Under the pieces are notes generated by a model. The model was not told where the DNA came from. It did not search any database and saw nothing but the letters and a program-made list of their open reading frames with translations. This document shows positions 6,457 through 17,654 of a stretch of 64,000 nucleotides of DNA, in pieces; position 1 is the stretch's first letter, and the number at the start of each line of letters is the position of its first letter. A program made the position numbers and the translations under genes. Source of the stretch: Flavobacteriia bacterium (lineage in GTDB: Bacteria > Bacteroidota > Bacteroidia > Flavobacteriales_D > Crocinitomicaceae); NCBI GenBank assembly GCA_026391005.1, contig JAPLEV010000053.1:9218-73217 (forward strand), read 5' to 3'.

Positions 6457-8358
6457 TTACATTTTTTCAGGGGCGTCAATACCCAACAAAGCCAATCCGC
6501 TTTTTATAACCTTGGCCACATTTGCGCATAGCAACAAACGGCCGACCTTAGCATCCTCATTTGCTTCGATTAAGATTGGAATTGTTTGATAAAAATGACT
6601 AAATTGTTTTACTAATTCGTACAAATAGTTGGCTAATAATGCGGGAGAATAATTGGCTGCAGCATCTTTGATAATCGTTGGATATAAAGCCAAGCATTTA
6701 ACTAGTTCTTTTTCCTCCGCCTGCAATTGAAATGAATTTTTTAGCTCGTAATTTTCTAGTTTTCCTTTCTTTAACAAGGAACAAATTCGAGCATGCGCAT
6801 ATTGAATAAAAGGGCCCGTATTTCCAGTAAGGTCAACCGACTCTTCGGGATTAAATAACATACGTTTTTTTGGATCGACCTTCAGTAAATAATACTTCAA
6901 TCCTCCCATTCCAATCTGAGCGTATAGTTCTCCGCGTAAATTTTCGGACATTCCTTCTAAATGACCTCTTTCTTTAGTTATCTCCGTCGCTTTCTCAATA
7001 ACTTCCTCCATCAAATCATCCGCATCCACGATTGTACCTTCCCGAGATTTCATTTTACCACTTGGTAAATCTACCATACCATACGAAAGATGGAAACAGT
7101 TTTTTGCCCAAGCGTACCCTAATTTATGAAGAATTAAAAACAGGACTTTAAAATGGTAATCTTGCTCATTTCCAACGGTATATACCATACCATCTAAGGA
7201 AGGATAATCAGAAAAACGATCAATAGCAGTGCCAATATCTTGGGTAATATAAACCGCTGTTCCATCGGATCGCAACACTATTTTTTCATCTAAACCTTCT
7301 GCGGTAAGATCAATCCAAACGGAACCATCGTCTTTTTTAAAAAATACGCCTGAACGCAAGCCTTCTACGATAACATCTTTTCCTAATAAATAGGTTTCTG
7401 ATTCGTAGTACAATTTATCAAAATCAACCCCCATTTTTTGGTACGTGAGTTCAAAACCAGCGTAAACCCAATTATTCATGGTCGTCCAAAGCAAATAGGT
7501 TTGAGGATCACGAGCCTCCCATTTCACTAACATGTCTTTCGCTTCGCGCAACAAGGTAGTTTCGTTTTTCGCTAACTCTTTAATTTTATCCTGAATGGCT
7601 TGCTGCGCCTTCTCCTCTTTTCCAACTAAGGCTTCTTGAAATTTCTTGTAAGTTTCGACAACAGCACTAGAGAAGCCATCAAACTCGCCATTTCCCCATT
7701 GGGAAATAATCTCATTGGCTTCCGCATTGAAGCGTTTATCAAATTCAACGTAATACTTTCCAACTAACTTATCTCCTTTTAATCCAGTATTAGCAGGCGT
7801 TTCTCGCTCACCTTTTGAATTTAAAGGCGAAAATTTCTCCCAAGCCAACATACTTTTACAAATATGTATGCCGCGATCATTTATAACCTGAGTTTTAATG
7901 ACTTCATGGCCAGCGGCTTTTACTATTTCAGCTAAAGAATATCCTAAAAAGATATTTCGTAAATGTCCTAAATGAAGCGGTTTATTAGTGTTTGGGGAAG
8001 AATATTCCACCATAATCATTGGCTGACTATTTTGCGGAGCCATACCGAAAGTTGAATTCGCATTAATGGCATGAAACGAATTAAACCAATATGAATCAGA
8101 AAAAGACAAATTCAAAAAACCATTGATTACTTCGAATGAATCCAGCTCTTGAGAATGTTCGGAAATGAAAGTTCCAATTTTCTCTCCCGCAAGTTGGGGC
8201 GATGTTTGCATTAATTTTGCAAATGGAAAAACAACGAGGGTGAGGTCCCCTTTCACATCTTTTCGTGTGGCTTGAAATTGAATCGAAGTTTCCGAAATTT
8301 GAGTATTAAAGAGCTCGACCGAATTAAGCAGTAATAATTCCTTGATTTTATTTTCCAT
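6457..8358 (-). CDS. argS: Arginine--tRNA ligase
   Basis: Class I HIGH motif (PLHLGHLRN) and overall ArgRS architecture. The listed ORF start at 8373 is a TTG codon, so I prefer the ATG at 8358 (MENKIKELL). Confidence 0.92.
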   Translation of the reverse strand: MENKIKELLLLNSVELFNTQISETSIQFQATRKDVKGDLTLVVFPFAKLMQTSPQLAGEKIGTFISEHSQELDSFEVINGFLNLSFSDSYWFNSFHAINANSTFGMAPQNSQPMIMVEYSSPNTNKPLHLGHLRNIFLGYSLAEIVKAAGHEVIKTQVINDRGIHICKSMLAWEKFSPLNSKGERETPANTGLKGDKLVGKYYVEFDKRFNAEANEIISQWGNGEFDGFSSAVVETYKKFQEALVGKEEKAQQAIQDKIKELAKNETTLLREAKDMLVKWEARDPQTYLLWTTMNNWVYAGFELTYQKMGVDFDKLYYESETYLLGKDVIVEGLRSGVFFKKDDGSVWIDLTAEGLDEKIVLRSDGTAVYITQDIGTAIDRFSDYPSLDGMVYTVGNEQDYHFKVLFLILHKLGYAWAKNCFHLSYGMVDLPSGKMKSREGTIVDADDLMEEVIEKATEITKERGHLEGMSENLRGELYAQIGMGGLKYYLLKVDPKKRMLFNPEESVDLTGNTGPFIQYAHARICSLLKKGKLENYELKNSFQLQAEEKELVKCLALYPTIIKDAAANYSPALLANYLYELVKQFSHFYQTIPILIEANEDAKVGRLLLCANVAKVIKSGLALLGIDAPEKM

Positions 8359-9301
8359 TTTTTGCTTTTTCAAGGACTTTCACCATGTTTTGTATTAATT
8401 CAAAAGCGACTTCCGCCATTTTATTTTTTTTATCATCCAAACAAGGATTAACTTCCACCAATTCGAAGGCTGCAATATTTGGCAACAGGATCATTTCAGT
8501 TAAAAGACAATTAGCCTCTTGTATGCTCAATCCATTTGGGACAGGCGTGCCAGTTCCGTTACTGGTTTCAGAAGGATCCATTGAATCGACGTCAAAAGAA
8601 ACATAAACGATATCACAGGATGAGAATTTAGCTTTGAGTTCAAGGATTAAATTATTGATCCCCATTGACCGTAATTCAGCCACTGAATAATTTTTTATCC
8701 CTAATTCCTCCATCAAAAAATCCTCTTGAGATTCTGTATCACGCACCCCAATAAAAACTAAATCTTCCGGAAGAATGGCTGTACTTTTTAGCGAATTCCA
8801 TTGCGTTGCCGTTGCAACATCCACTTCATTTTTTTTACAGGCAAGATTATCTACGCCTAAGGCGGTTGCCAAAGGCATTCCATGTAAATTTCCGGATGGA
8901 GTTGTGTAAGGAGTATGCATATCGGCATGTGCATCAATCCACAAAACACCTATTTTTTTACCAGGACAGGTCTTTTTGAGGCCGGAAATTGTTCCCCCAG
9001 CAGATCCATGATCACCAGAAATAATAAATGGGAATTTCTTTAGCGAATATTGAGTTTGAATTTCTTTTTCTACCAATCCAAAAACCTTCAACATTCCATC
9101 AATTCGCTTTGCTTTTCGATAAGGCGAATCAACATCTAGTAAATAATTACAATCGTTAAGAATAATTGGTGGAAAATCAGAGAAAAAAGAACTGTTTTGG
9201 TCCCTTGCAACAGAAACAATCGCTGCCGGACCAAGTGAAGCACCACGCGTTCCGGCACCAATTTCTGATGGATTAAATATAAATTTAATTTCTAAAGACA
9301 T
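8348..9301 (-). CDS. Arginase / ureohydrolase family protein (arginase, agmatinase or formimidoylglutamase-like)
   Basis: Mn-binding signatures GDHGSAGG, DAHADMHT, SFDVDSMDP and ELVEVNP are all present. Confidence 0.85.
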   Translation of the reverse strand: MSLEIKFIFNPSEIGAGTRGASLGPAAIVSVARDQNSSFFSDFPPIILNDCNYLLDVDSPYRKAKRIDGMLKVFGLVEKEIQTQYSLKKFPFIISGDHGSAGGTISGLKKTCPGKKIGVLWIDAHADMHTPYTTPSGNLHGMPLATALGVDNLACKKNEVDVATATQWNSLKSTAILPEDLVFIGVRDTESQEDFLMEELGIKNYSVAELRSMGINNLILELKAKFSSCDIVYVSFDVDSMDPSETSNGTGTPVPNGLSIQEANCLLTEMILLPNIAAFELVEVNPCLDDKKNKMAEVAFELIQNMVKVLEKAKNGK

Positions 9302-9412
9302 AAAGTATTGCTTTTCATAGCGCCGTAAAGTTACGGATTTTACAGGAAAGAAAACAGAAATTGGTCCCTAGTATCAACTACTTTTAACTACATTTGTATT
9401 TCATTTCAAAAA

Positions 9413-9420
9413 TAAAGTTG
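9413..9420 (+). promoter_or_regulatory. Possible Bacteroidota -7 box (TAAAGTTG) upstream of the tRNA leader
   Basis: One mismatch to TAnnTTTG. A TTTG lies 16 bp upstream at 9393-9396. Confidence 0.2.
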
Positions 9421-9521
9421 GGGATGTAGCTCATCCGCCTAGGCGGAGGCTAGATTTTGATAATTGACATGGGGATGTAGCTCATCCGCCCAGGCGGAGG
9501 CTAGATTTTGATAATTGACAT
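9420..9521 (+). repeat. Two 51-bp tandem direct repeats, each a truncated 5' copy of the downstream tRNA-Ala plus a palindromic hairpin
   Basis: Unit sequence is GGGGATGTAGCTCA-TCCGCC(T/C)AGGCGGA-GGCTAGATTTTGATAATTGACAT. Copies lie at 9420-9470 and 9471-9521 and differ at one base. The first 14 nt are identical to the tRNA 5' end. Confidence 0.9.
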
Positions 9522-9595
9522 GGGGATGTAGCTCAGTTGGCTAGAGTGCTTGACTGGCAGTCAAGAGGTCGTGGGTTCGAATCCCATCTTCTCCA
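9522..9595 (+). tRNA. tRNA-Ala (anticodon GGC)
   Basis: Hand-folded cloverleaf: acceptor GGGGATG/CTTCTCC with the G3:U70 alanine identity pair, anticodon loop CTGGCAG, T-loop TTCGAAT. There is one U6-U67 mismatch in the acceptor stem. CCA is not encoded. Confidence 0.85.
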
Positions 9596-9600
9596 CATTA

Positions 9601-9630
9601 AAAACCCTGATTGTGAAATCAGGGTTTTTA
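9601..9630 (+). terminator. Intrinsic terminator after tRNA-Ala
   Basis: Perfect 12-bp stem AAAACCCTGATT / AATCAGGGTTTT with a GTGA loop and a T-rich tail. Confidence 0.75.
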
Positions 9631-9705
9631 ATTATATCGTTTGGGAAAGCATATAACGAAAGCGTTAACGACTGCTCGAAGCAACATAAAGTGAACCTAT
9701 CACCA

Positions 9706-9915
9706 TTACTCTACTTCTTCGATGTCTATGTTATAGGCATCTTCATAATCCTCATGCTCGTCTTCTAAGACCTTATCACAGTGTTGAAAAAATTCACCAC
9801 ATTCACTAAATTGTTCATCACCCTCATTATATAGTGCTAGCTCTTCTTCGCTTAATATACATGAGAAGGTTTTTACGGTAGACGTGTGTTCACACCAGGT
9901 TATTTTTGTTGGCAT
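9706..9915 (-). CDS. Hypothetical small, highly acidic 4-Cys protein (69 aa)
   Basis: ORF only. It has 21 Asp/Glu versus 3 Lys, and Cys at residues 8, 19, 39 and 46. It lies 60 bp downstream of the lipoprotein gene on the same strand. Confidence 0.5.
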   Translation of the reverse strand: MPTKITWCEHTSTVKTFSCILSEEELALYNEGDEQFSECGEFFQHCDKVLEDEHEDYEDAYNIDIEEVE

Positions 9916-9975
9916 ATGTTTGTGTTTTTATATTTATTTATTAATGTACTATATTTAATTAAGTTTTATACTAAT

Positions 9976-10872
9976 CTATTTTATCTTATTTTTAATCACT
10001 ACGCTGTTAAAATTATCAGGACCATACCACCTTCCTTCGCTTGAAACGTAGATAAAAGGAGCCCTATAGTAACCAAAATTAGTTAACGAAGTAATGATTT
10101 TACCGCTTTTAATTAAATATTCATCCCTTGCAGGATTATATTCAAACCCTTCAGGAAGTTCATAATTACCAATATAAACTTCGTTTTCGGCAATAGGAAA
10201 AAACGTGTTTTGTTGGTTATAAAACCCAATTCGTGGTATCTTTCTCAAATTGTTGATAAAGTAATATTCTTTTAACTCCTGTTTTTCTGCAAATTCCATA
10301 AACTCCCAGAAGGAAGTTTCACCCCTTTTAAGTTTCTTTAATTCTTCGTAAAGAAATGCCGTATCGATTTTTAGTGAATTAAAAATTGCGGTGTCTATTT
10401 TATTACCATTGGATTTTTCGTTAAGGGAATAACTGCTAACCTGTCGTTTTAGATTCTCAATTTCCGTTTTTAATTTTTTATCCCACAGTAAATTAATTTT
10501 TTTATTGTAAAGATTTTCCTTCTCTGCCAAAGCATGCCCTAATTCATTCAAGGTGAATTTGGCAAATTCTCCATTACCCTGAGCATACCAACCATCATTC
10601 GATTTGTAAGCATAAAAAATACCGTCCATGGATCGAATAATAATGCGCGATGTAGTGGAATCCAGCTCCGCATGTGTTTTTAAAAAAATATATCCTTGGT
10701 CTTGCTCGACTTCCGTTGGCTCAAAATCTTTTGCTATTTGGTCATAATAATCACAAAGTAAACCCTTACAGTCAGGTTGGTTCTTATTAGAGCATGCTGA
10801 AATAATCAACACAACAACTGCAGAAATAATTGAAAAAATCACGCTATTATTCCGATTAATGAACCTTTTCAT
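9976..10872 (-). CDS. Hypothetical lipoprotein (298 aa)
   Basis: Lipoprotein signal (VVLIISAC). The central part is Lys/Glu-rich and looks like coiled coil. I recognise no family. Confidence 0.65.
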   Translation of the reverse strand: MKRFINRNNSVIFSIISAVVVLIISACSNKNQPDCKGLLCDYYDQIAKDFEPTEVEQDQGYIFLKTHAELDSTTSRIIIRSMDGIFYAYKSNDGWYAQGNGEFAKFTLNELGHALAEKENLYNKKINLLWDKKLKTEIENLKRQVSSYSLNEKSNGNKIDTAIFNSLKIDTAFLYEELKKLKRGETSFWEFMEFAEKQELKEYYFINNLRKIPRIGFYNQQNTFFPIAENEVYIGNYELPEGFEYNPARDEYLIKSGKIITSLTNFGYYRAPFIYVSSEGRWYGPDNFNSVVIKNKIK

Positions 10873-11056
10873 AGTATTTAATTTTTATTGTCAAATATAT
10901 TAAAAAAATTACCAACCCTTTTATTCAAACTAGTTTACCTAAAGGTTAAAATATTTCAAGGACACCCTAGTGTTCATCTTCCCTACTCGAAAGATAAAAC
11001 TTCCAATATCACTAAGCTTGCATGATTTTTATTATCTTTATTCAAAATTAATTATA

Positions 11057-11389
11057 ATGAAAAAGCTGATCTTAACCCTCTGGGCATTGGTATCTTTGCA
11101 TGCCTTTAGCCAAACCGTCTATTCCGTAAACTCCAAATACGACGCAGATGTTAAAGTATTCGTAGCCTCCTCTAAGTATGACGCGGATTTAGTGGTGTAC
11201 AAGTGTTCTTCTAAATACGATGCCACCGACAACAAAGGATTGTGGTTCTTTGTCTCGTCAAAATATGATGCAAAAAAGAAAATTTATTTCTGCGATAGCA
11301 AATACGATGCTGACCTCATCATCTTTTTCAGCGATAGCAAATACGATGCGCAATGGAGAAGTAATGCAAAGAAGAGTTTAATGTATTAG
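11057..11389 (+). CDS. Secreted SKYDA-repeat protein (110 aa)
   Basis: The ATG at 11057 gives a signal peptide (MKKLILTLWALVSLHAFSQ). It is followed by six SKYDA(D/T/K/Q) motifs spaced 13, 13, 16, 13 and 13 aa apart, each followed by a hydrophobic beta-like stretch. The listed ORF start at 10970 adds an implausible leader. Confidence 0.7.
   Translation: MKKLILTLWALVSLHAFSQTVYSVNSKYDADVKVFVASSKYDADLVVYKCSSKYDATDNKGLWFFVSSKYDAKKKIYFCDSKYDADLIIFFSDSKYDAQWRSNAKKSLMY
11292..11349 (+). repeat. Near-identical 19-bp DNA duplication (GCGATAGCAAATACGATGC) spaced 39 bp apart inside the SKYDA gene
   Basis: Copies at 11292-11310 and 11331-11349. The spacing equals one 13-aa protein repeat. Confidence 0.8.
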
Positions 11390-11420
11390 ACTGAGGGGAA
11401 AATTAATAATTATAAGAACT

Positions 11421-12221
11421 ATGGATATTGCTAAGTTGCTTGAGCGTTTTGACTCCAAAAAATTAAGGCCTTTAACTACAATAGTTATTGTTGAAGTTAT
11501 GTTGTTTTTGTTCTCAATTGAAACACTAATTGAATGGTTCAACATACATCCGTTTGTATTTTTTATATTTTTTGTAATGGCCAGTATCCTAGTTTTTAGT
11601 ATTCTTCAATACATAAAACAATCACCGGAACAAAAATCTTGGTGCAAAGCAACATTTCAATGGTTAGTTTTTGTAAGAACAACCCTGGCAATAATTATTT
11701 TTTTCTTGCTTTTTGTCCTATATGTGGTCTTTATAGTTCCGGATTATAGAGTAATCGCTATTACAGATTCCGAAGATAGACAGTTTGAAAAAAAGAAACT
11801 TATGATTCCTTTTGCCAAGCAAGGGATGCTTGACACATTGAGTGCTGAAATTCAAGCACTATTAGGGGATCAATACAGTGTTAAAATCGATAATTTTGTC
11901 TATAAAGGCAAAAACCAAAAATTAATTAAAAATTCAAGATTGATTATAGTGCCTGGCATTTTCAATAAAGAGAAAGCTGTTGAAACTTTAATGAAACTCG
12001 AAGAACGAATTGAATTTTTTATTGCCAGTGATGAAGAAATGGAAATTCCAAAATTAGCAATTTTATGGAAAAATAAAGGATGTTGGAAGAACAACAAGCT
12101 TGAAATCATTAAAATAAAAGCCCAAATAGGTTTTATGAGTGGGACTGATAATAATTCAAAAGAAATTAGTTGTTTTGCTCAACAATGGAACAAATTTAAA
12201 TTCATAATCAACTTAAAATGA
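11421..12221 (+). CDS. Hypothetical integral membrane protein (266 aa)
   Basis: Several N-terminal TM helices, then a ~150 aa soluble domain. The stop codon overlaps the next start (ATGA at 12218). Confidence 0.6.
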   Translation: MDIAKLLERFDSKKLRPLTTIVIVEVMLFLFSIETLIEWFNIHPFVFFIFFVMASILVFSILQYIKQSPEQKSWCKATFQWLVFVRTTLAIIIFFLLFVLYVVFIVPDYRVIAITDSEDRQFEKKKLMIPFAKQGMLDTLSAEIQALLGDQYSVKIDNFVYKGKNQKLIKNSRLIIVPGIFNKEKAVETLMKLEERIEFFIASDEEMEIPKLAILWKNKGCWKNNKLEIIKIKAQIGFMSGTDNNSKEISCFAQQWNKFKFIINLK

Positions 12222-12739
12222 AAAAAATGATCCGCCTTTCTTTATTATTGGTGCTTATTGCAGGGATAATTTATTACGTATGGCCACAAGAGCAATTAGT
12301 AAAAAATCAGCGCATTGATAAAATAGTGGTAAATAAAACCGATCGACAAATGATTGTATACTACAAGAATGAAGAAATTGCGCGATATACCGTTTCATTA
12401 GGCTCGAAAAAATGGCCGTCACCTAAGTGGGGACCATTCTTAAATCATGATGATGGTCCAAAAAATCGGTTTGGTGATGCGAAAACTCCAGAAGGGGAGT
12501 ATAGATTGTCACCCTCTCACGGCAAATACCAACCCGCGCTGAAACTAAATTACGAAAAAAAATACCCAGGACAGGGAGGGGGAATTTTAATACACGGCCC
12601 AAACCAAATGAATAAATTCGCAGGTAAATTCCTGCGTTGGGTTGATTGGACAGACGGCTGCATTGCACTAACGGAATCGGAAATGAAAGAAATTTACAAT
12701 GCCGTCAAGCCAAATTGTTACATTCAAATTAATCACTAA
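12218..12739 (+). CDS. L,D-transpeptidase-fold (YkuD/YafK-like) protein with N-terminal anchor
   Basis: GGILIHGP ... DWTDGCIALTESEMKEIY matches the YkuD catalytic His/Cys region in its YafK-like form. An N-terminal TM or signal segment is present. Confidence 0.75.
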   Translation: MKKMIRLSLLLVLIAGIIYYVWPQEQLVKNQRIDKIVVNKTDRQMIVYYKNEEIARYTVSLGSKKWPSPKWGPFLNHDDGPKNRFGDAKTPEGEYRLSPSHGKYQPALKLNYEKKYPGQGGGILIHGPNQMNKFAGKFLRWVDWTDGCIALTESEMKEIYNAVKPNCYIQINH

Positions 12740-12825
12740 CTCAGATTTTAATGAAACAAAAAAATTGTCTTTTGCCTTTTGTTTTCTTAAAAAATACCAC
12801 CTTGTAGCTTTAAATTGAATCATTT

Positions 12826-13770
12826 ATGAAAGCCCTTAAAATTTTCTCTGTAGTACTATTATTCATTCTTTTAACCATTCTTTCTCAAGTAGGCGGAATA
12901 ATTCTTCTGCTTTGGCTACTAATTTTTCGATATTTTAAAGCCAAACTTACCAAACCATGGGCGCGACGAACAACAAACGTATTCGGTTTTATGGCCTTTT
13001 ACATGATTTTTAATCTGTTGATTATTCCTTTCCTCGCAGGACTGGGTGGCAAAGTACGGCTACCAATGTCCAAATCGGGGAACCTAGTTCCTGTGACGTA
13101 TTGGACAGCCATCTTCATGAGAAATTATATCACGGAGGAAGGAAAAGAAAAGATGTCGAAGATAGCCGACGAATTCGCCCAAAAATACCCTGGCCTGCAA
13201 GTGAAATACATGGACTGTAATTATCCGTTTAATATACCAACGCCAACGATACCCAAAGGATATATCTCGAAGAAAGAAGTGGAAACCTTTCCACTGACTG
13301 AAGGCTTAATACCCCACATATCTCATTTTGGCAATAAAGCTGACATAGCTTTGGTATATACTGATGAAACTGGAAAACCCTCTAATTTAACCCCGACCGC
13401 GATTGGTTATGGAAGTTCGGTTGATCCATTACCAGATGAACCTGGATATGCTAACCCAAAATGTGGTTGCAAAACAAATCATCAATCTCAGAGAAAAGAC
13501 TCGAAAGGAAAAATCAATGAAGGGACACCATGTATGTGTGATAAGGAATATGTTTTATATTCATTCATGTATCACATTATTCCAATTAATAAAAGTATTA
13601 AATTGTCCAAAATCCCTTCAGCTTCACTTATTAATAGATTTTACAAATTTGATAAAGAAATAATTCTTGAAGCGCACCTAAGAAAGAGATTGGAAGTGCT
13701 ACAATATAGTTGGGGAAATCACCCATGTTCTAGCGTCCGCCACGATGACCATTTTCACGTTAAATTTTAG
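12826..13770 (+). CDS. Membrane-anchored putative LAS-family (MepA / M74-like) zinc peptidase
   Basis: N-terminal TM helices. The HISHFGNKAD stretch contains an H-x5-D motif (HFGNKAD), and the C-terminal RHDDHFHVKF supplies an H-x-H motif, as in LAS metallopeptidases. A Cys-rich insert (KCGCK...CMCD) is present. The family call is from motifs only. Confidence 0.5.
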   Translation: MKALKIFSVVLLFILLTILSQVGGIILLLWLLIFRYFKAKLTKPWARRTTNVFGFMAFYMIFNLLIIPFLAGLGGKVRLPMSKSGNLVPVTYWTAIFMRNYITEEGKEKMSKIADEFAQKYPGLQVKYMDCNYPFNIPTPTIPKGYISKKEVETFPLTEGLIPHISHFGNKADIALVYTDETGKPSNLTPTAIGYGSSVDPLPDEPGYANPKCGCKTNHQSQRKDSKGKINEGTPCMCDKEYVLYSFMYHIIPINKSIKLSKIPSASLINRFYKFDKEIILEAHLRKRLEVLQYSWGNHPCSSVRHDDHFHVKF

Positions 13771-13775
13771 TATCT

Positions 13776-14198
13776 ATGAAGCGGTTACTAATTTATATCA
13801 GTTTATTTATCGCTCCCTTTTTACTTGTTGTTTGCGTTAATGAATTAAACAGACCTTCGCAATTGAATACCATTAACCTTATGGGCAAAAAGGTAGTTTC
13901 GATTAATCCCAGTCGTTGCATGAAAGACCGTTGCACTTGGTTTTGTCACAACCACGGTTGCGGAAAAACACAAAAACCGAATCGTTGTCCTCACAAAAAA
14001 AAAAACGTCATTAATACAGGATTTGTTGCAACAATTTATTGGGGCATACTTGAATTCAATGGGATTTCCAACGGCGAAAGCAACTCTTATCAGTCGCAAT
14101 CTGTTATGAATTTAGTGATTTTATGGCCCCTGTTACTACTAGGATTGCTTATCTTCAATATTGAATTATTTCTCACCCGAAAAAAGAAAGATGACTGA
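13776..14198 (+). CDS. Hypothetical Cys-rich membrane protein (140 aa)
   Basis: N- and C-terminal TM segments flank the Cys cluster CMKDRCTWFCHNHGCGKTQKPNRCPH. The gene contains an A11 tract. Confidence 0.55.
   Translation: MKRLLIYISLFIAPFLLVVCVNELNRPSQLNTINLMGKKVVSINPSRCMKDRCTWFCHNHGCGKTQKPNRCPHKKKNVINTGFVATIYWGILEFNGISNGESNSYQSQSVMNLVILWPLLLLGLLIFNIELFLTRKKKDD
13995..14005 (+). repeat. Homopolymeric A11 tract inside a coding sequence
   Basis: CAC AAA AAA AAA AAC, encoding HKKKN. Confidence 0.9.
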
Positions 14199-14376
14199 AT
14201 TAATAAACTCCATTTACATATACTGTACTGATTTTACGATTACCTCCGCTAACTTAATTGGGATAACCTATGAAGACTTTAATGCACTCATTTTCTGTGT
14301 TATTTGGCCTCTCCTAACCATAGTAAGCTTGATTACCCTTTTTGTACAAATTTATTTAAGACATAAAAAGATTTAA
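14191..14376 (+). CDS. Hypothetical small membrane protein (61 aa)
   Basis: The ATG at 14191 overlaps the upstream stop codon (ATGACTGA). There is one clear C-terminal TM segment (FCVIWPLLTIVSLITLFV). Confidence 0.45.
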   Translation: MTELINSIYIYCTDFTITSANLIGITYEDFNALIFCVIWPLLTIVSLITLFVQIYLRHKKI

Positions 14377-14410
14377 AATCATATTATTAGCAGAATAATT
14401 AACTTTGAGG

Positions 14411-15037
14411 ATGCAAAAACTAGCAATCATCCTATTCTCAACACTTTCATTGAGCTGTTTTTCTCAGAAAAATAAAGCAGCGTTTAGCGGAGAATTACTT
14501 TACAACATTGAAAAATTAAGCCCTGCAGATTCAACACCTTCAAAGATGCTGATTTATGCAAAAGATAGTTTATTAAAGGTTATTAATTTTTCGTCTATTT
14601 TGGGCAAACAAGAGATGATTAAACACCTCAGATTAAATCGATCCTATGTTCTTGTATCTACTACCAGGGGGAATTTCGCAATTAAAAACGACTTAAATAC
14701 TGATAAAGATACTGTTGAAACATATACCTTCAAAAAGAAATTTGGTAGAACAAAAATTGCGGGAATTAGAGCGAAAAGAATTTTAGTAACATTAACGGGT
14801 ATTGAAAAAAAATTTATTTTTTATTATCACCCTAAAATAAATGCGAAATACGGAAGTGCCTATCAAAACCTTCCAGGCTTATTGCTCGAATACTATGTGG
14901 TCAATGAAAATGGCCTCATAAAATATACGCTTGAAAATATAAAACATAGTGATGTACCTTTGGGAATTTTTATGATTCCTACCGACTACAAAAAAGTCAG
15001 CCTTGAAGAATTTATTCAAGAAGTCTCTGCGCAATAA
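14411..15037 (+). CDS. GLPGLI-family-like secreted protein
   Basis: Signal peptide (MQKLAIILFSTLSLSCFSQ). The motif NLPGLLLEYY resembles the GLPGLI signature of this Bacteroidota paralogous family. The listed start at 14405 is a TTG codon. Confidence 0.55.
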   Translation: MQKLAIILFSTLSLSCFSQKNKAAFSGELLYNIEKLSPADSTPSKMLIYAKDSLLKVINFSSILGKQEMIKHLRLNRSYVLVSTTRGNFAIKNDLNTDKDTVETYTFKKKFGRTKIAGIRAKRILVTLTGIEKKFIFYYHPKINAKYGSAYQNLPGLLLEYYVVNENGLIKYTLENIKHSDVPLGIFMIPTDYKKVSLEEFIQEVSAQ

Positions 15038-15149: not shown

Positions 15150-17654
15150 ATGTCAGACAACGAATATACACCCAAAGAAAAAACTAAGGAAGGCATTCCA
15201 AAAGGAAAGCCCACTCAATCCGACAAAAAAAAAATAAATTCTAAAGAAGTAAAAGAGAATTGGCTAAATCGAAAAAAGGTAAAAACTATTTTAGGATCTA
15301 GTACTATATTATTCTCTGTGTTCTTATTCGTCTCGTATGTATCTTATTTTTTTACTTGGAAAATTGACCAAGATATTATTTTAAACACCTCTTTTTTTGA
15401 CTATATTTTTAATTCTAGTATTCCTGCTCCAGAAAACTGGCTAGGTAAATTCGGCGCATGGATATCTCACATTTTAGTATTTGGAACCTTTGGAATTAGC
15501 GCAATCGGAATTTGTTTGTTCTTATTCCTTTTAGGTATAAAAATCCTATTTAATGTTGATTTATTGCCTTTTAAAAGAACAACTGCAATTACATTTTCAT
15601 TCATGATTTGGGGTTCATTATTATTCGGCTATTTTTCAAATTATGTTAATTACCTTGGAGGAACTTTTGGTTTCTACGTAAATAAGTGGTTAATAACAAC
15701 AATTGGTAATATCGGTGCGATAGCATTGATAATAGTTCTATTATACATAATCGTCACCTTACTTTTTAATCCGAATTACGCACAACTGTTTTCCTTTTTA
15801 TCATCAAAAAAACAAGCTGCTGCTTCCAATGATCAGGAAACTAACGATGAACAAGAGGATAGCTATACGTCAGTGTATGATGACATGCATGTTATAAATA
15901 CGATAAAGGATGAAGAAATAGAAAAAGAAAATATTTCCGAAACAATCCACTTCGGAGAAAATGAAGAAGAAGAAGAAGATGATGACGATGATGAGTCCGA
16001 ATTAATTGACACCATTCACACTGACGATGATTTCGAAATAGAAATTCCTGAAAAAGAAGCAATGGTTAATATTCCGCAATCGGAAACAATTAAAAAAGAA
16101 GATGAGGAAGGATCGCTTGCTGATAAATTAGTGGCCGAATTTGGAATGTATGATCCTACCAAAGATCTTGATGGCTTCCTACTCCCTCCTATTGACTTAT
16201 TAAAAGAGTACGGTGGCAATGGTACAACTGTAAGCAAAGAGGAATTAGAAGGAAACAAGGATAAAATTGTGCAAACGCTATCGCATTATAAAATTGACAT
16301 TGCCAAAATTAAAGCAACTGTAGGTCCTACGGTTACTTTATATGAAATCGTTCCCGCTCCCGGAGTTCGTATATCAAAAATTAAAAATCTGGAGGATGAT
16401 ATCGCACTTAGTCTAAGCGCTCTTGGGATACGAATCATTGCACCAATACCAGGAAAAGGAACGATCGGTATTGAAGTCCCTAACTTAAACCCGGAAATGG
16501 TAAGTATGAGGTCGCTGATTGCCTCTGAAAAGTTTCAAAATTTTGACGGCGAATTACCAATCGTATTGGGAAAAACCATCACCAATGAAACCTTTGTATT
16601 CGACTTAACGAGAATGCCACACTTATTGGTTGCTGGATCAACAGGTCAAGGGAAATCAGTAGGTTTAAATGCCATCTTAGTCTCCTTGTTGTACAGAAAA
16701 CATCCCGCTCAAGTTAAATTCGTTTTAGTGGATCCGAAAAAAGTTGAGTTAACACTTTACAATAAAATAGAACGACATTATCTAGCCAAACTTCCTGGAA
16801 ATGAAGATGCCATCATCACTGACACCTCAAAGGTTGTTCATACCCTAAACTCGCTCTGTATTGAAATGGATGATCGATACGAACTTCTTAAAACGGCAGA
16901 GGTTCGTACGATTAAAGAATACAATACCAAATTTATTGAGAGGCGATTAAATCCAGAAAAAGGACATCGTTACCTTCCCTATATCGTGGTGGTAATTGAT
17001 GAATTTGCTGACTTAATCATGACCGCAGGCAAAGAAGTCGAACATCCGATTGCAAGAATTGCGCAATTAGCAAGGGCAATTGGAATTCACTTAATTGTAG
17101 CCACACAAAGGCCTTCGGTAAACGTAATTACCGGAATGATAAAAGCTAATTTCCCAGCGAGAATAGCCTTTAGAGTGCTTTCAAAGATAGATTCAAGAAC
17201 CATATTAGATTCTTCCGGAGCCGATCAACTCATAGGACGAGGTGATATGCTAATAATGAACGGATCAGACATGATTAGATTACAATGTGGCTTTGTTGAT
17301 ACACCAGAAGTTGAAAGTATTTGTAATTTTATTGGGGGACAACGTGCCTACCCTGAAGCATTAATTTTACCTGAATATATTCCCGATGGTGCTGAGGGAA
17401 GCGCCGACTTAGACATGAATGAAATTGATGCCATGTTCGTGGAATCTGCTCGGATTGTAGTAATTAACCAACAAGGATCCGCCAGTTTACTTCAACGTAA
17501 ACTAAAATTAGGCTATAATCGGGCTGGACGAATTGTTGATCAATTGGAAGGAATGGGTATTATCGGTGCATTTCAAGGTAGCAAAGCTCGCGAAGTCCTT
17601 TATAGCGACATTGAATCACTCGATGATTTACTAAGAACAAAAGGTTTGATTTAA
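15150..17654 (+). CDS. ftsK: DNA translocase FtsK/SpoIIIE
   Basis: N-terminal TM domain, an acidic linker (EEEEDDDDDESE), a motor domain with Walker A (GSTGQGKS), and a C-terminal gamma-like winged-helix domain. Confidence 0.93.
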   Translation: MSDNEYTPKEKTKEGIPKGKPTQSDKKKINSKEVKENWLNRKKVKTILGSSTILFSVFLFVSYVSYFFTWKIDQDIILNTSFFDYIFNSSIPAPENWLGKFGAWISHILVFGTFGISAIGICLFLFLLGIKILFNVDLLPFKRTTAITFSFMIWGSLLFGYFSNYVNYLGGTFGFYVNKWLITTIGNIGAIALIIVLLYIIVTLLFNPNYAQLFSFLSSKKQAAASNDQETNDEQEDSYTSVYDDMHVINTIKDEEIEKENISETIHFGENEEEEEDDDDDESELIDTIHTDDDFEIEIPEKEAMVNIPQSETIKKEDEEGSLADKLVAEFGMYDPTKDLDGFLLPPIDLLKEYGGNGTTVSKEELEGNKDKIVQTLSHYKIDIAKIKATVGPTVTLYEIVPAPGVRISKIKNLEDDIALSLSALGIRIIAPIPGKGTIGIEVPNLNPEMVSMRSLIASEKFQNFDGELPIVLGKTITNETFVFDLTRMPHLLVAGSTGQGKSVGLNAILVSLLYRKHPAQVKFVLVDPKKVELTLYNKIERHYLAKLPGNEDAIITDTSKVVHTLNSLCIEMDDRYELLKTAEVRTIKEYNTKFIERRLNPEKGHRYLPYIVVVIDEFADLIMTAGKEVEHPIARIAQLARAIGIHLIVATQRPSVNVITGMIKANFPARIAFRVLSKIDSRTILDSSGADQLIGRGDMLIMNGSDMIRLQCGFVDTPEVESICNFIGGQRAYPEALILPEYIPDGAEGSADLDMNEIDAMFVESARIVVINQQGSASLLQRKLKLGYNRAGRIVDQLEGMGIIGAFQGSKAREVLYSDIESLDDLLRTKGLI

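Follow-up and report, generated by a model that had tools for sequence, protein, structure and literature searches.

The closest described systems for the locus analysed here are two sets of peptidoglycan enzymes of Escherichia coli. In E. coli K-12, ldtD (ycbB) and mepK (ycbK) are adjacent, which places a metallo-endopeptidase gene next to that of a YcbB/YkuD_2-clade L,D-transpeptidase. YcbB/LdtD groups with the YkuD_2 clade (10.1101/2020.02.18.954545), and YkuD enzymes act at meso-diaminopimelic acid (meso-DAP), where 3-3 cross-linking, carboxypeptidase or endopeptidase activity and the attachment or detachment of proteins are on record (review PMC12729407). YcbB production is lethal without MepK (10.1101/2021.02.12.430937), and the logic of the pair is that making 3-3 links needs a hydrolase able to open them; MepK itself is a 3-3-preferring M15 peptidase. 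The second system is MepA, a penicillin-insensitive murein DD/LD-endopeptidase of family M74 with the LAS fold (PDB 1U10/1TZP), which cleaves both 4-3 and 3-3 cross-links and for which H113A was used as a catalytically dead mutant (10.1101/2021.02.12.430937). Here, the nine open reading frames (ORFs; o1 to o9) that lie between arginase and ftsK were analysed in a stretch of 64,000 nt from a Crocinitomicaceae genome (contig JAPLEV010000053.1, positions 9,218 to 73,217; hereafter the window). Judged from sequence, models and analogy, o3 to o8 would be an old and dispensable module for peptidoglycan cross-link remodelling, analogous to ldtD-mepK and now decaying, a reading that was given slightly better than even probability.

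The window comes from the Crocinitomicaceae (Flavobacteriales), and its nearest species representative is the metagenome-assembled genome contig JBIIOQ010000005 (L004; L-numbers denote the compared genome and metagenome loci), with arginase and ArgS being 75% and 83% identical, respectively. A total of 80 genome loci around arginase homologues were fetched and searched with all window proteins. Two Logan contigs, L002 and L003, were 100% identical to the window over the whole block, and L001, a contig from a metagenome, belongs to the species of the window. A sequence-only reading of the window had described nine ORFs in one block between arginase (8348-9301, minus strand) on the left flank and ftsK (15150-17654) on the right, and these were borne out with coordinates about as given there. 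The region is made up of three parts, namely a backbone gene (o9), an orphan pair (o1 and o2) and the cluster of o3 to o8. The same reading had taken all nine genes for an accessory cell-envelope module. An accessory, co-occurring envelope cluster of six or seven genes, and not of nine, is indeed present, and it carries no mark of recent acquisition.

The full order of the cluster is DUF6150 (o3), o4, YkuD (o5), YkuD_2, o6, o7 and o8, followed by the GLPGLI gene and ftsK. Context look-ups and a metagenome scan showed the cluster in the same order and at the same site in L021, L084, L085/L086, L094, L095, L096, L098 and L100, with tight junctions and, where the flanks were on the contig, with the same arginase/tRNA and ftsK/M14 genes. 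The two stop/start overlaps noted earlier were confirmed at o4/o5 (4 nt) and at o7/o8 (8 nt, with the o8 start ATG at 14191). Because several lineages share o3 to o8 at this site with the gene order kept, these genes are not a random collection, while no co-occurrence of o1 and o2 with them was found outside this species. Identity to the window proteins was 85-90% for DUF6150, 70% for o4, 37-42% for YkuD, 54-59% for YkuD_2 (with the L001 copy as reference), 49-57% for o6, 36-42% for o7 and 61-67% for o8; the flanking proteins (GLPGLI, M14, arginase, ArgS and FtsK) showed 49-69%. Synonymous sites were saturated alike in cluster and flank genes. Given this saturation and a divergence like that of the flanks, the comparison indicates that the cluster is old at this site, lineage-restricted and patchily retained in a subset of freshwater Crocinitomicaceae.

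The gene o6 (12826-13770, plus strand) encodes a protein of 314 amino acids in which AlphaFold2, Foldseek and motifs identified a LAS zinc-peptidase domain behind three membrane helices at the N-terminus. The AlphaFold2 model had a predicted local distance difference test score (pLDDT) of 80.7 and showed three N-terminal helices and a globular domain. The top five Foldseek matches were all E. coli MepA (1u10/1tzp), with E values of 2.5e-3 to 4.9e-3, a probability of 1.0 and target-normalised template modelling (TM) scores of 0.48-0.52, and the next matches were Hedgehog-N and LdcB/VanY, all of the LAS fold, to which the modelled catalytic domain of o6 was assigned. VanY and LdcB are LAS carboxypeptidases that share this superfold and also act on peptidoglycan stem peptides; their Foldseek matches were weaker (4jid, 4mph and 4ox3; E value of 0.4-6), and the motif spacing of o6 is that of MepA and not the VanY pattern.

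Six residues of o6 (H164, H167, D173, H306, H309 and H311) were invariant in 50 diverse homologues, align with H110, H113, D120, H206, H209 and H211 of MepA and are the probable catalytic and metal-binding residues. The hhalign comparison of o6 with E. coli MepA covered 140 columns with an E value of 2.7e-4 and had both motifs in register, PHLSHxDGxKxD of o6 being paired with GHASHQTGLDVD of MepA and RHDDHxHV with QHRAHMHV. Both the first motif (H-x(6)-D within HxSHxxGxxxD, with a one-residue deletion in the subgroup of the window) and the second (HxxHxH) were found, which showed that the LAS zinc-peptidase motifs recognised in the sequence-only reading are real. MepA and o6 thus have H-x-S-H-x-x-G-x-x-x-D and H-x-x-H-x-H-V in common, and both are predicted to be periplasmic; for o6, the positive-inside rule and the charged loop between helices 2 and 3 (RYFKAKLTKPWARR) predict that the catalytic domain faces the periplasm. 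However, MepA has a cleavable signal peptide where o6 has three N-terminal membrane helices, the o6 subgroup of the window has a Cys-rich insertion of approximately 30 residues, and o6 falls below the M74 thresholds. No match of o6 to the M74/MepA family models (PF03411 and NF006947) was found at E ≤ 0.1, the curated threshold not being reached, and ten distant homologues were all sub-threshold as well, with 13-22 bits for Peptidase_M74 (threshold 25) and 13-21 bits for NF006947 (threshold 272).

A search with o6 gave 71 clusters at 90% identity, with no Pfam matches and with the named ones called hypothetical. In a scan of 1.84 billion representatives, 605 relatives were found (50%-identity clusters), of which 418 had E ≤ 1e-10; nearly all are 260-290 amino acids long and matched over the full length. 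The few named members of this wider family, including one RefSeq entry, were again called hypothetical and no Pfam model scored above its threshold. Overall, the single lines of evidence are not strong and all agree, and the best reading of sequence and model is that o6 would be a membrane-anchored MepA-like LAS peptidase.

The second enzyme of the cluster is o5 (12218-12739, plus strand), a membrane-anchored YkuD-fold protein of 173 amino acids. It belongs to Pfam YkuD (PF03734; E value of 3.7e-19, 70.2 bits against a threshold of 23.4) and has the His...Cys motif (ILIHG...WTDGCIAL). The match to LdtF/DpaA/YafK (NF040599) had an E value of 3e-4 and 19.9 bits, against an equivalog cut-off of 365, so that of the YafK-like L,D-transpeptidase fold proposed earlier the YkuD fold stands and the YafK label holds at the fold level only. 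The third enzyme, YkuD_2 (PF13645), is intact in L001 and present in the window as a remnant only. Its distance from the downstream o6 is 7 nt in L084, L085, L086, L088, L089, L094-L096, L098 and L100. In L088 (7350-8921) and L089 (872-2443), the YkuD_2-o6 pair was found alone, between a gene for a large protein with a type IX secretion system (T9SS) tail and a PhoH/PIN gene. The o6 copy in these two loci was 58% identical to that of the window, which is as similar as the copies in the syntenic clusters.

Downstream of o6, o7 (13776-14198, plus strand) encodes a bitopic membrane protein of 140 amino acids with N- and C-terminal helices, a Cys/His-rich middle and an invariant CTWxCH motif, and o8 (14191-14376, plus strand) encodes a small membrane protein of approximately 61 amino acids with an invariant YxYCTDFxIxxAN...FCV motif. 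The start of o8 at 14191 was conserved in an alignment of nine orthologues, and o8 is probably translationally coupled to o7. The gene o7 was found downstream of o6 in L021, L084, L085, L094-L096, L098, L100, L109 and L112. Both o7 and o8 accompany o6 even where o6 identity is 30-32% (L109 and L112), and this retention beside an o6 of approximately 30% identity is the best evidence, at the level of sequence, for a functional link between o6, o7 and o8.

At the other end of the cluster, o3 (11057-11389, plus strand) encodes a secreted protein of 110 amino acids with approximately six SKYDAD-type repeats. The sequence-only reading had left six of the ORFs without a family that could be named, among them o3, which proved to be a clear member of DUF6150 (PF19647; E value of 1.3e-39, 134.6 bits against a threshold of 27, profile positions 3-97 of 98), a family without known function. 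In the cluster, DUF6150 invariably comes first, and two tandem DUF6150 paralogues were seen at the same site in L028. Orthologues of o3 were 80-87% identical in loci where arginase was approximately 55% identical and synonymous sites were saturated. The GC content at third codon positions (GC3) of o3 was 0.51, where the window has a mean of 0.29 (z = 7.3). Together, these values point to very strong purifying selection and possibly to high expression. Recent transfer of DUF6150 as the cause of the conservation was rejected, the synonymous sites being saturated. The next gene, o4 (11421-12221, plus strand), encodes a membrane protein of 266 amino acids that has helices at its N-terminus and, at its C-terminus, a conserved alpha/beta domain (motif SRLIIVPGIF..E.A.ET). 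It gave 49 clusters with no Pfam match, nearly all of them unnamed or hypothetical apart from two stray names (acyl carrier protein and beta-xylosidase). The AlphaFold2 model of o4 had a pLDDT of 74, and Foldseek gave only generic alpha/beta matches with a best E value of 0.22, none of them significant.

Comparison with close strains showed that the cluster is dispensable and decaying in this species. Relative to L001, 584 bp encoding the YkuD_2 protein of 216 amino acids are missing from the window at 12781/12782, and positions 12752-12825 (plus strand) are the remnant of this deleted tenth gene. The junction alignment with L001 showed that these 74 bp consist of approximately the first 31 nt and approximately the last 37 nt of the gene together with a 7-nt spacer. 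The loci L174/L175, with 92-95% DNA identity to the window, do not have window positions 12219-12835 except for a short remnant of the YkuD N-terminus, and are thus without both YkuD genes while o6 to o8 are kept. In L001, which retains YkuD_2, apparent frameshifts split o5 and o7 (8823-9331 and 10951-11371), which reflects either pseudogenisation or an error of metagenome assembly. Among the other lineages, o4 is absent in L084 and L095, in fragments in L021 and present in L085, L086, L094 and L096, and L097 keeps DUF6150 and o6 only.

Read as a cross-link remodelling module, the cluster would work through o6 cleaving 4-3 and/or 3-3 peptide cross-links in the manner of MepA, and through YkuD and YkuD_2 making 3-3 cross-links or otherwise editing or attaching at the meso-DAP position, with o7 and o8 as probable membrane partners or regulators of o6. 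The likeness to ldtD-mepK lies in the placing of a transpeptidase gene of the YcbB/YkuD_2 clade beside a putative metallo-endopeptidase gene, and the analogy of o6 to MepK is functional only. A similarity of o6 to E. coli MepK was looked for by hhalign and was not detectable (probability of 0.6%). In contrast to the E. coli pair, the cluster here includes a second YkuD gene together with DUF6150, o4, o7 and o8, and the pairing of transpeptidase and o6 is not general for the o6 family and is lost in the window itself.

Several points weigh against this reading. The sequence link between o6 and MepA is weak, with no Pfam or NCBIfam match, homologues at 13-22 bits where 25 are required and an hhalign probability of 41%, and the structural match is moderate, with a best Foldseek E value of 2.5e-3 and query-normalised TM scores of 0.37-0.40. 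Distant o6 homologues (approximately 66 loci) are mostly solitary; their 97 immediate neighbours fall into 120 Pfam families and YkuD_2 accounts for only 2 of the 97, so that o6 is not paired with a transpeptidase across its family in general. YkuD genes are lost in close strains that keep o6 to o8, which argues against obligate cooperation. The cluster is also present in the window and absent in its closest relative L004, which requires either several independent losses or an ancient transfer. Finally, no assignable function was obtained for o4 from the fold search, for o7 and o8 from alignments or for DUF6150 from the PDB sequence search, in which it had no relative of solved structure.

The solitary distant homologues and the diversity of their neighbours are also what would be expected if there were no functional unit at all and unrelated envelope genes had accumulated in a permissive intergenic site. 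This is unlikely. It would account for o1 and o2, which are unrelated to the remaining genes, and for the absence of o4, YkuD, YkuD_2 or o7/o8 individually in some carriers (L084, L095, L097 and L174). However, gene order, strand and the tight or overlapping junctions persist despite saturated synonymous divergence, the 7-nt spacing of YkuD_2 and o6 is kept in the different chromosomal context of L088/L089, and o7 and o8 stay with o6 at approximately 30% identity. In addition, two or three of the genes would act on one class of substrate, the stem peptides of peptidoglycan.

The position of the segment raises another explanation, namely a tRNA-targeted genomic island acquired horizontally next to tRNA-Ala, which was judged very unlikely. 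Comparison with L004 shows that the variable segment runs from 9597 to about 14365 and so contains o1 to o8, and its left edge is a single tRNA-Ala (anticodon GGC; 9522-9596, plus strand; ARAGORN, and Rfam RF00005 with 66.5 bits). The segment starts right after the 3' end of this tRNA and is absent from L004, the closest representative; an insertion between arginase and GLPGLI-ftsK is present in only 6 of 48 species, and the gap carries other cargo elsewhere (L006, and L028 with its two DUF6150 paralogues and other ORFs). In these respects it resembles tRNA-associated genomic islands, which likewise abut tRNA 3' ends, are patchy and have alternative cargo at the site. Unlike those islands, it has no integrase, att repeat or compositional signature. 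Scans of the nine products against Pfam, NCBIfam, PHROGs and PADLOC found no integrase, transposase or phage protein, as the sequence-only reading had maintained, and no second copy of the last 22 nt of the tRNA, and hence no att direct repeat, was present in the window with up to 3 mismatches allowed. Pooled codon usage of o1 to o8 was not unusual, with a Jensen-Shannon (JS) value of 0.016 compared with 0.012 ± 0.005 when sets of window genes were drawn at random. The GC content of the genes was within or just under the window range of 0.316-0.395, only o4 (0.298) and o8 (0.301) being slightly below. GC content and codon usage were therefore indistinguishable from the rest of the window, and the deviation from the flanks that had been proposed as a check was not seen for the pooled genes, the GC3 of o3 being the only unusual value. 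Orthologous clusters stand at the same site with flanks that are 55-69% identical and equally saturated, which makes any transfer an ancient one.

The tRNA-Ala also bears on this point through its 5' end. The sequence-only reading had noticed that this end is duplicated twice just before the block and had taken it as a marker of local rearrangement. The two extra copies are there, as 51-bp units (9419-9521, plus strand) that each contain the first 14 nt of the tRNA and 37 nt more. The duplication is nevertheless not evidence of rearrangement of the block, because it is located between arginase and the tRNA, at the end that faces away from the block, and is a species-specific repeat of variable copy number. 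Three tRNA-Ala 5' starts were counted in the window, four in L001 and one in each of eight other loci, a variation that is slippage-like.

The YkuD enzymes could alternatively attach or detach an envelope protein such as DUF6150 at meso-DAP, with o6 trimming the linkage, and to this protein-to-peptidoglycan tethering or release little credence was given. YkuD enzymes are documented to anchor and detach proteins at peptidoglycan (review PMC12729407). In E. coli, LdtA-C and DpaA act on Lpp in this way, and o5 has its weak match to LdtF/DpaA/YafK (E value of 3e-4). The constant first place of DUF6150 in the cluster and the exceptional purifying selection on it would also fit. However, the DpaA match is far under the cut-off (19.9 against 365 bits), a linkage of DUF6150 to peptidoglycan is without support, and DUF6150 stands at this site without any YkuD gene in L028, L067, L097 and L174. 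An antibacterial toxin/immunity locus, with peptidoglycan-degrading effectors and small membrane or lipoprotein immunity proteins, is extremely unlikely, for although YkuD-fold proteins can be type VI secretion system effectors with L,D-carboxypeptidase activity (10.1101/2020.02.18.954545) and peptidoglycan enzymes are found here together with small membrane proteins and the fast-evolving lipoprotein o2, the proteins o5, o6 and YkuD_2 start with membrane anchors and not with secretion or T9SS C-terminal domains, Pfam, NCBIfam, PHROGs and PADLOC scans of the products of the block found no domain of a secretion system or for delivery, no PADLOC or PHROGs matches counted in its favour, and the chromosomal position is fixed with vertical-like divergence.

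A stronger form of the remodelling module can be put forward, in which the cluster would be a dedicated envelope machine of freshwater Crocinitomicaceae, with a membrane complex of o6, o7 and o8 and two L,D-transpeptidases, together with DUF6150 and o4, that builds and opens 3-3 cross-links or tethers DUF6150. It was considered quite unlikely; given the place of the cluster beside ftsK, such a machine would possibly be connected with division, and if true it would provide functions for four protein families that now have none. The sequence-only reading had ranked the block as the best candidate for an undescribed system in the window, which did not hold, as the functions suggested by the YkuD fold and by the MepA-like LAS domain are largely those of ordinary peptidoglycan enzymology. 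What is new is a branch of MepA-like peptidases that is anchored in the membrane and lacks annotation, together with its small uncharacterised partners. The practical gain is one of annotation, since o6 stands for a coherent family of Bacteroidota proteins whose constant architecture is three membrane helices and a LAS domain and which can be described as a putative membrane-anchored MepA-like peptidoglycan peptidase. Its recurrent neighbours are testable leads for the o4, o7, o8 and DUF6150 families. Near-identical strains with the full set, with YkuD_2 lost and with both YkuD genes lost offer a natural comparison for L,D-transpeptidation in the walls of Flavobacteriales. The understanding of cell-wall biology is unchanged and a known theme is extended.

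Outside the cluster, o9 (14405-15037, plus strand, with a probable start ATG at 14411) encodes a secreted GLPGLI-like protein and belongs to the conserved backbone, where it accompanies ftsK outside any insertion. The gap between arginase and o9 was under 500 bp in 42 of the 48 related species loci having both genes (median of 175 bp), with ftsK directly next, and for this reason o9 belongs with ftsK. Of the 80 related genome loci, about 50 have it next to ftsK, with the cluster or without, and the 60 nt upstream of it are conserved between the window and L004. The gap in L004 is 354 bp and contains none of o1 to o8; after the tRNA, there are 47 unrelated nt and then a match to the window from position 14366 onward, which is the upstream region of o9 and includes the stop codon of o8. 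The question whether arginase, tRNA-Ala and ftsK are adjacent in relatives thus has two answers, o1 to o8 being accessory relative to most of them and o9 being backbone. The GLPGLI motif reported earlier for o9 corresponds to a real GLPGLI-like match, which is below the cut-off of TIGR01200 (E value of 5.9e-6, 26.2 bits against 50, profile positions 65-225 of 229). The likeness extends over most of the length of o9, and as the family is without known function its name explains nothing. Throughout the Crocinitomicaceae, ftsK is directly preceded by a GLPGLI-like gene of the same orientation, and this pairing with a cell-division gene is conserved.

The orphan pair o1 and o2 is a species-specific, divergent pair that is separate from the cluster. 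The gene o1 (9706-9915, minus strand) encodes an acidic protein of 69 amino acids with four Cys residues, was found in this species alone (L001-L003 and L174/L175) and had no family match in Pfam, NCBIfam, PHROGs or PADLOC. Its translation shows neither a signal peptide nor a hydrophobic or membrane segment, contrary to the earlier statement that all nine products are secreted, lipoproteins or membrane proteins. The gene o2 (9976-10872, minus strand) encodes a predicted lipoprotein of 298 amino acids with a signal peptide ending in ...IISAC. Only 10 clusters of o2 were found in 5.8 billion proteins, eight of them 86-95% identical or fragments and the other two 40-43% identical in an unrelated TerD/VWA/kinase context. 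The o2 proteins of the window and L001 were 90% identical, compared with 97-100% for neighbouring proteins, and identity across strains was 86-95%. This divergence is locally raised, as might be expected for a surface-exposed or phage-targeted protein.

Further searches of the locus gave little. No defence-system component was matched in PADLOC by the nine proteins or by YkuD_2, and in PHROGs the sole match of these proteins was that of o2 to a family of unknown function, which was weak (E value of 1.2e-3). PDB sequence searches with o3, o5, YkuD_2, o9 and o6 profiles gave nothing significant, MepA being found only at an E value of 0.48 with the broad o6 profile. In a literature search, DUF6150 occurred in no paper, and the matches for GLPGLI and YkuD_2 were incidental and without a function for the proteins described here. 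The Rfam scan of the whole window found the tRNA alone. Bacteroidota promoters differ from the sigma-70 consensus. A promoter and terminator consensus scan was for this reason uninformative; its counts were at or below the shuffle expectation except for the terminator of the tRNA.

That terminator-like hairpin lies directly after tRNA-Ala (9597-9632, plus strand) and has a 16-pair stem followed by a T run. Homology with L004 stops at the hairpin, and L004 has another hairpin at that position. The tRNA-Ala is kept at this site in the closer relatives, and it stands between arginase and GLPGLI or DUF6150 in L004, L006, L009, L021, L028, L084, L085 and L094. Including the tRNA start, the tandem array on its upstream side extends over 9419-9535 (plus strand; Tandem Repeats Finder period of 51, 2.3 copies and 98% matches). 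The 37-nt part of the unit contains the palindrome CCGCCYAGGCGG and was found nowhere else in the window as a dispersed element. RNA folding of the array was strong (z = -5), which the internal palindrome accounts for, and the repeat may duplicate the promoter region of tRNA-Ala. The copy number of the array varies within the species, with 2.3 copies in the window and 3.3 in L001 (5966-6132), and eight other genomes have no such array in front of the orthologous tRNA. Finally, the site between tRNA-Ala and GLPGLI seems to tolerate insertions without recognisable mobility genes. In L006 (8521-9689), the same gap holds an ORF of 231 amino acids that reads like a short-chain dehydrogenase and another of 154 amino acids, both unrelated to the cluster, and small unknown ORFs occupy it in L028 (8875-9441) and L021 (3508-3969).

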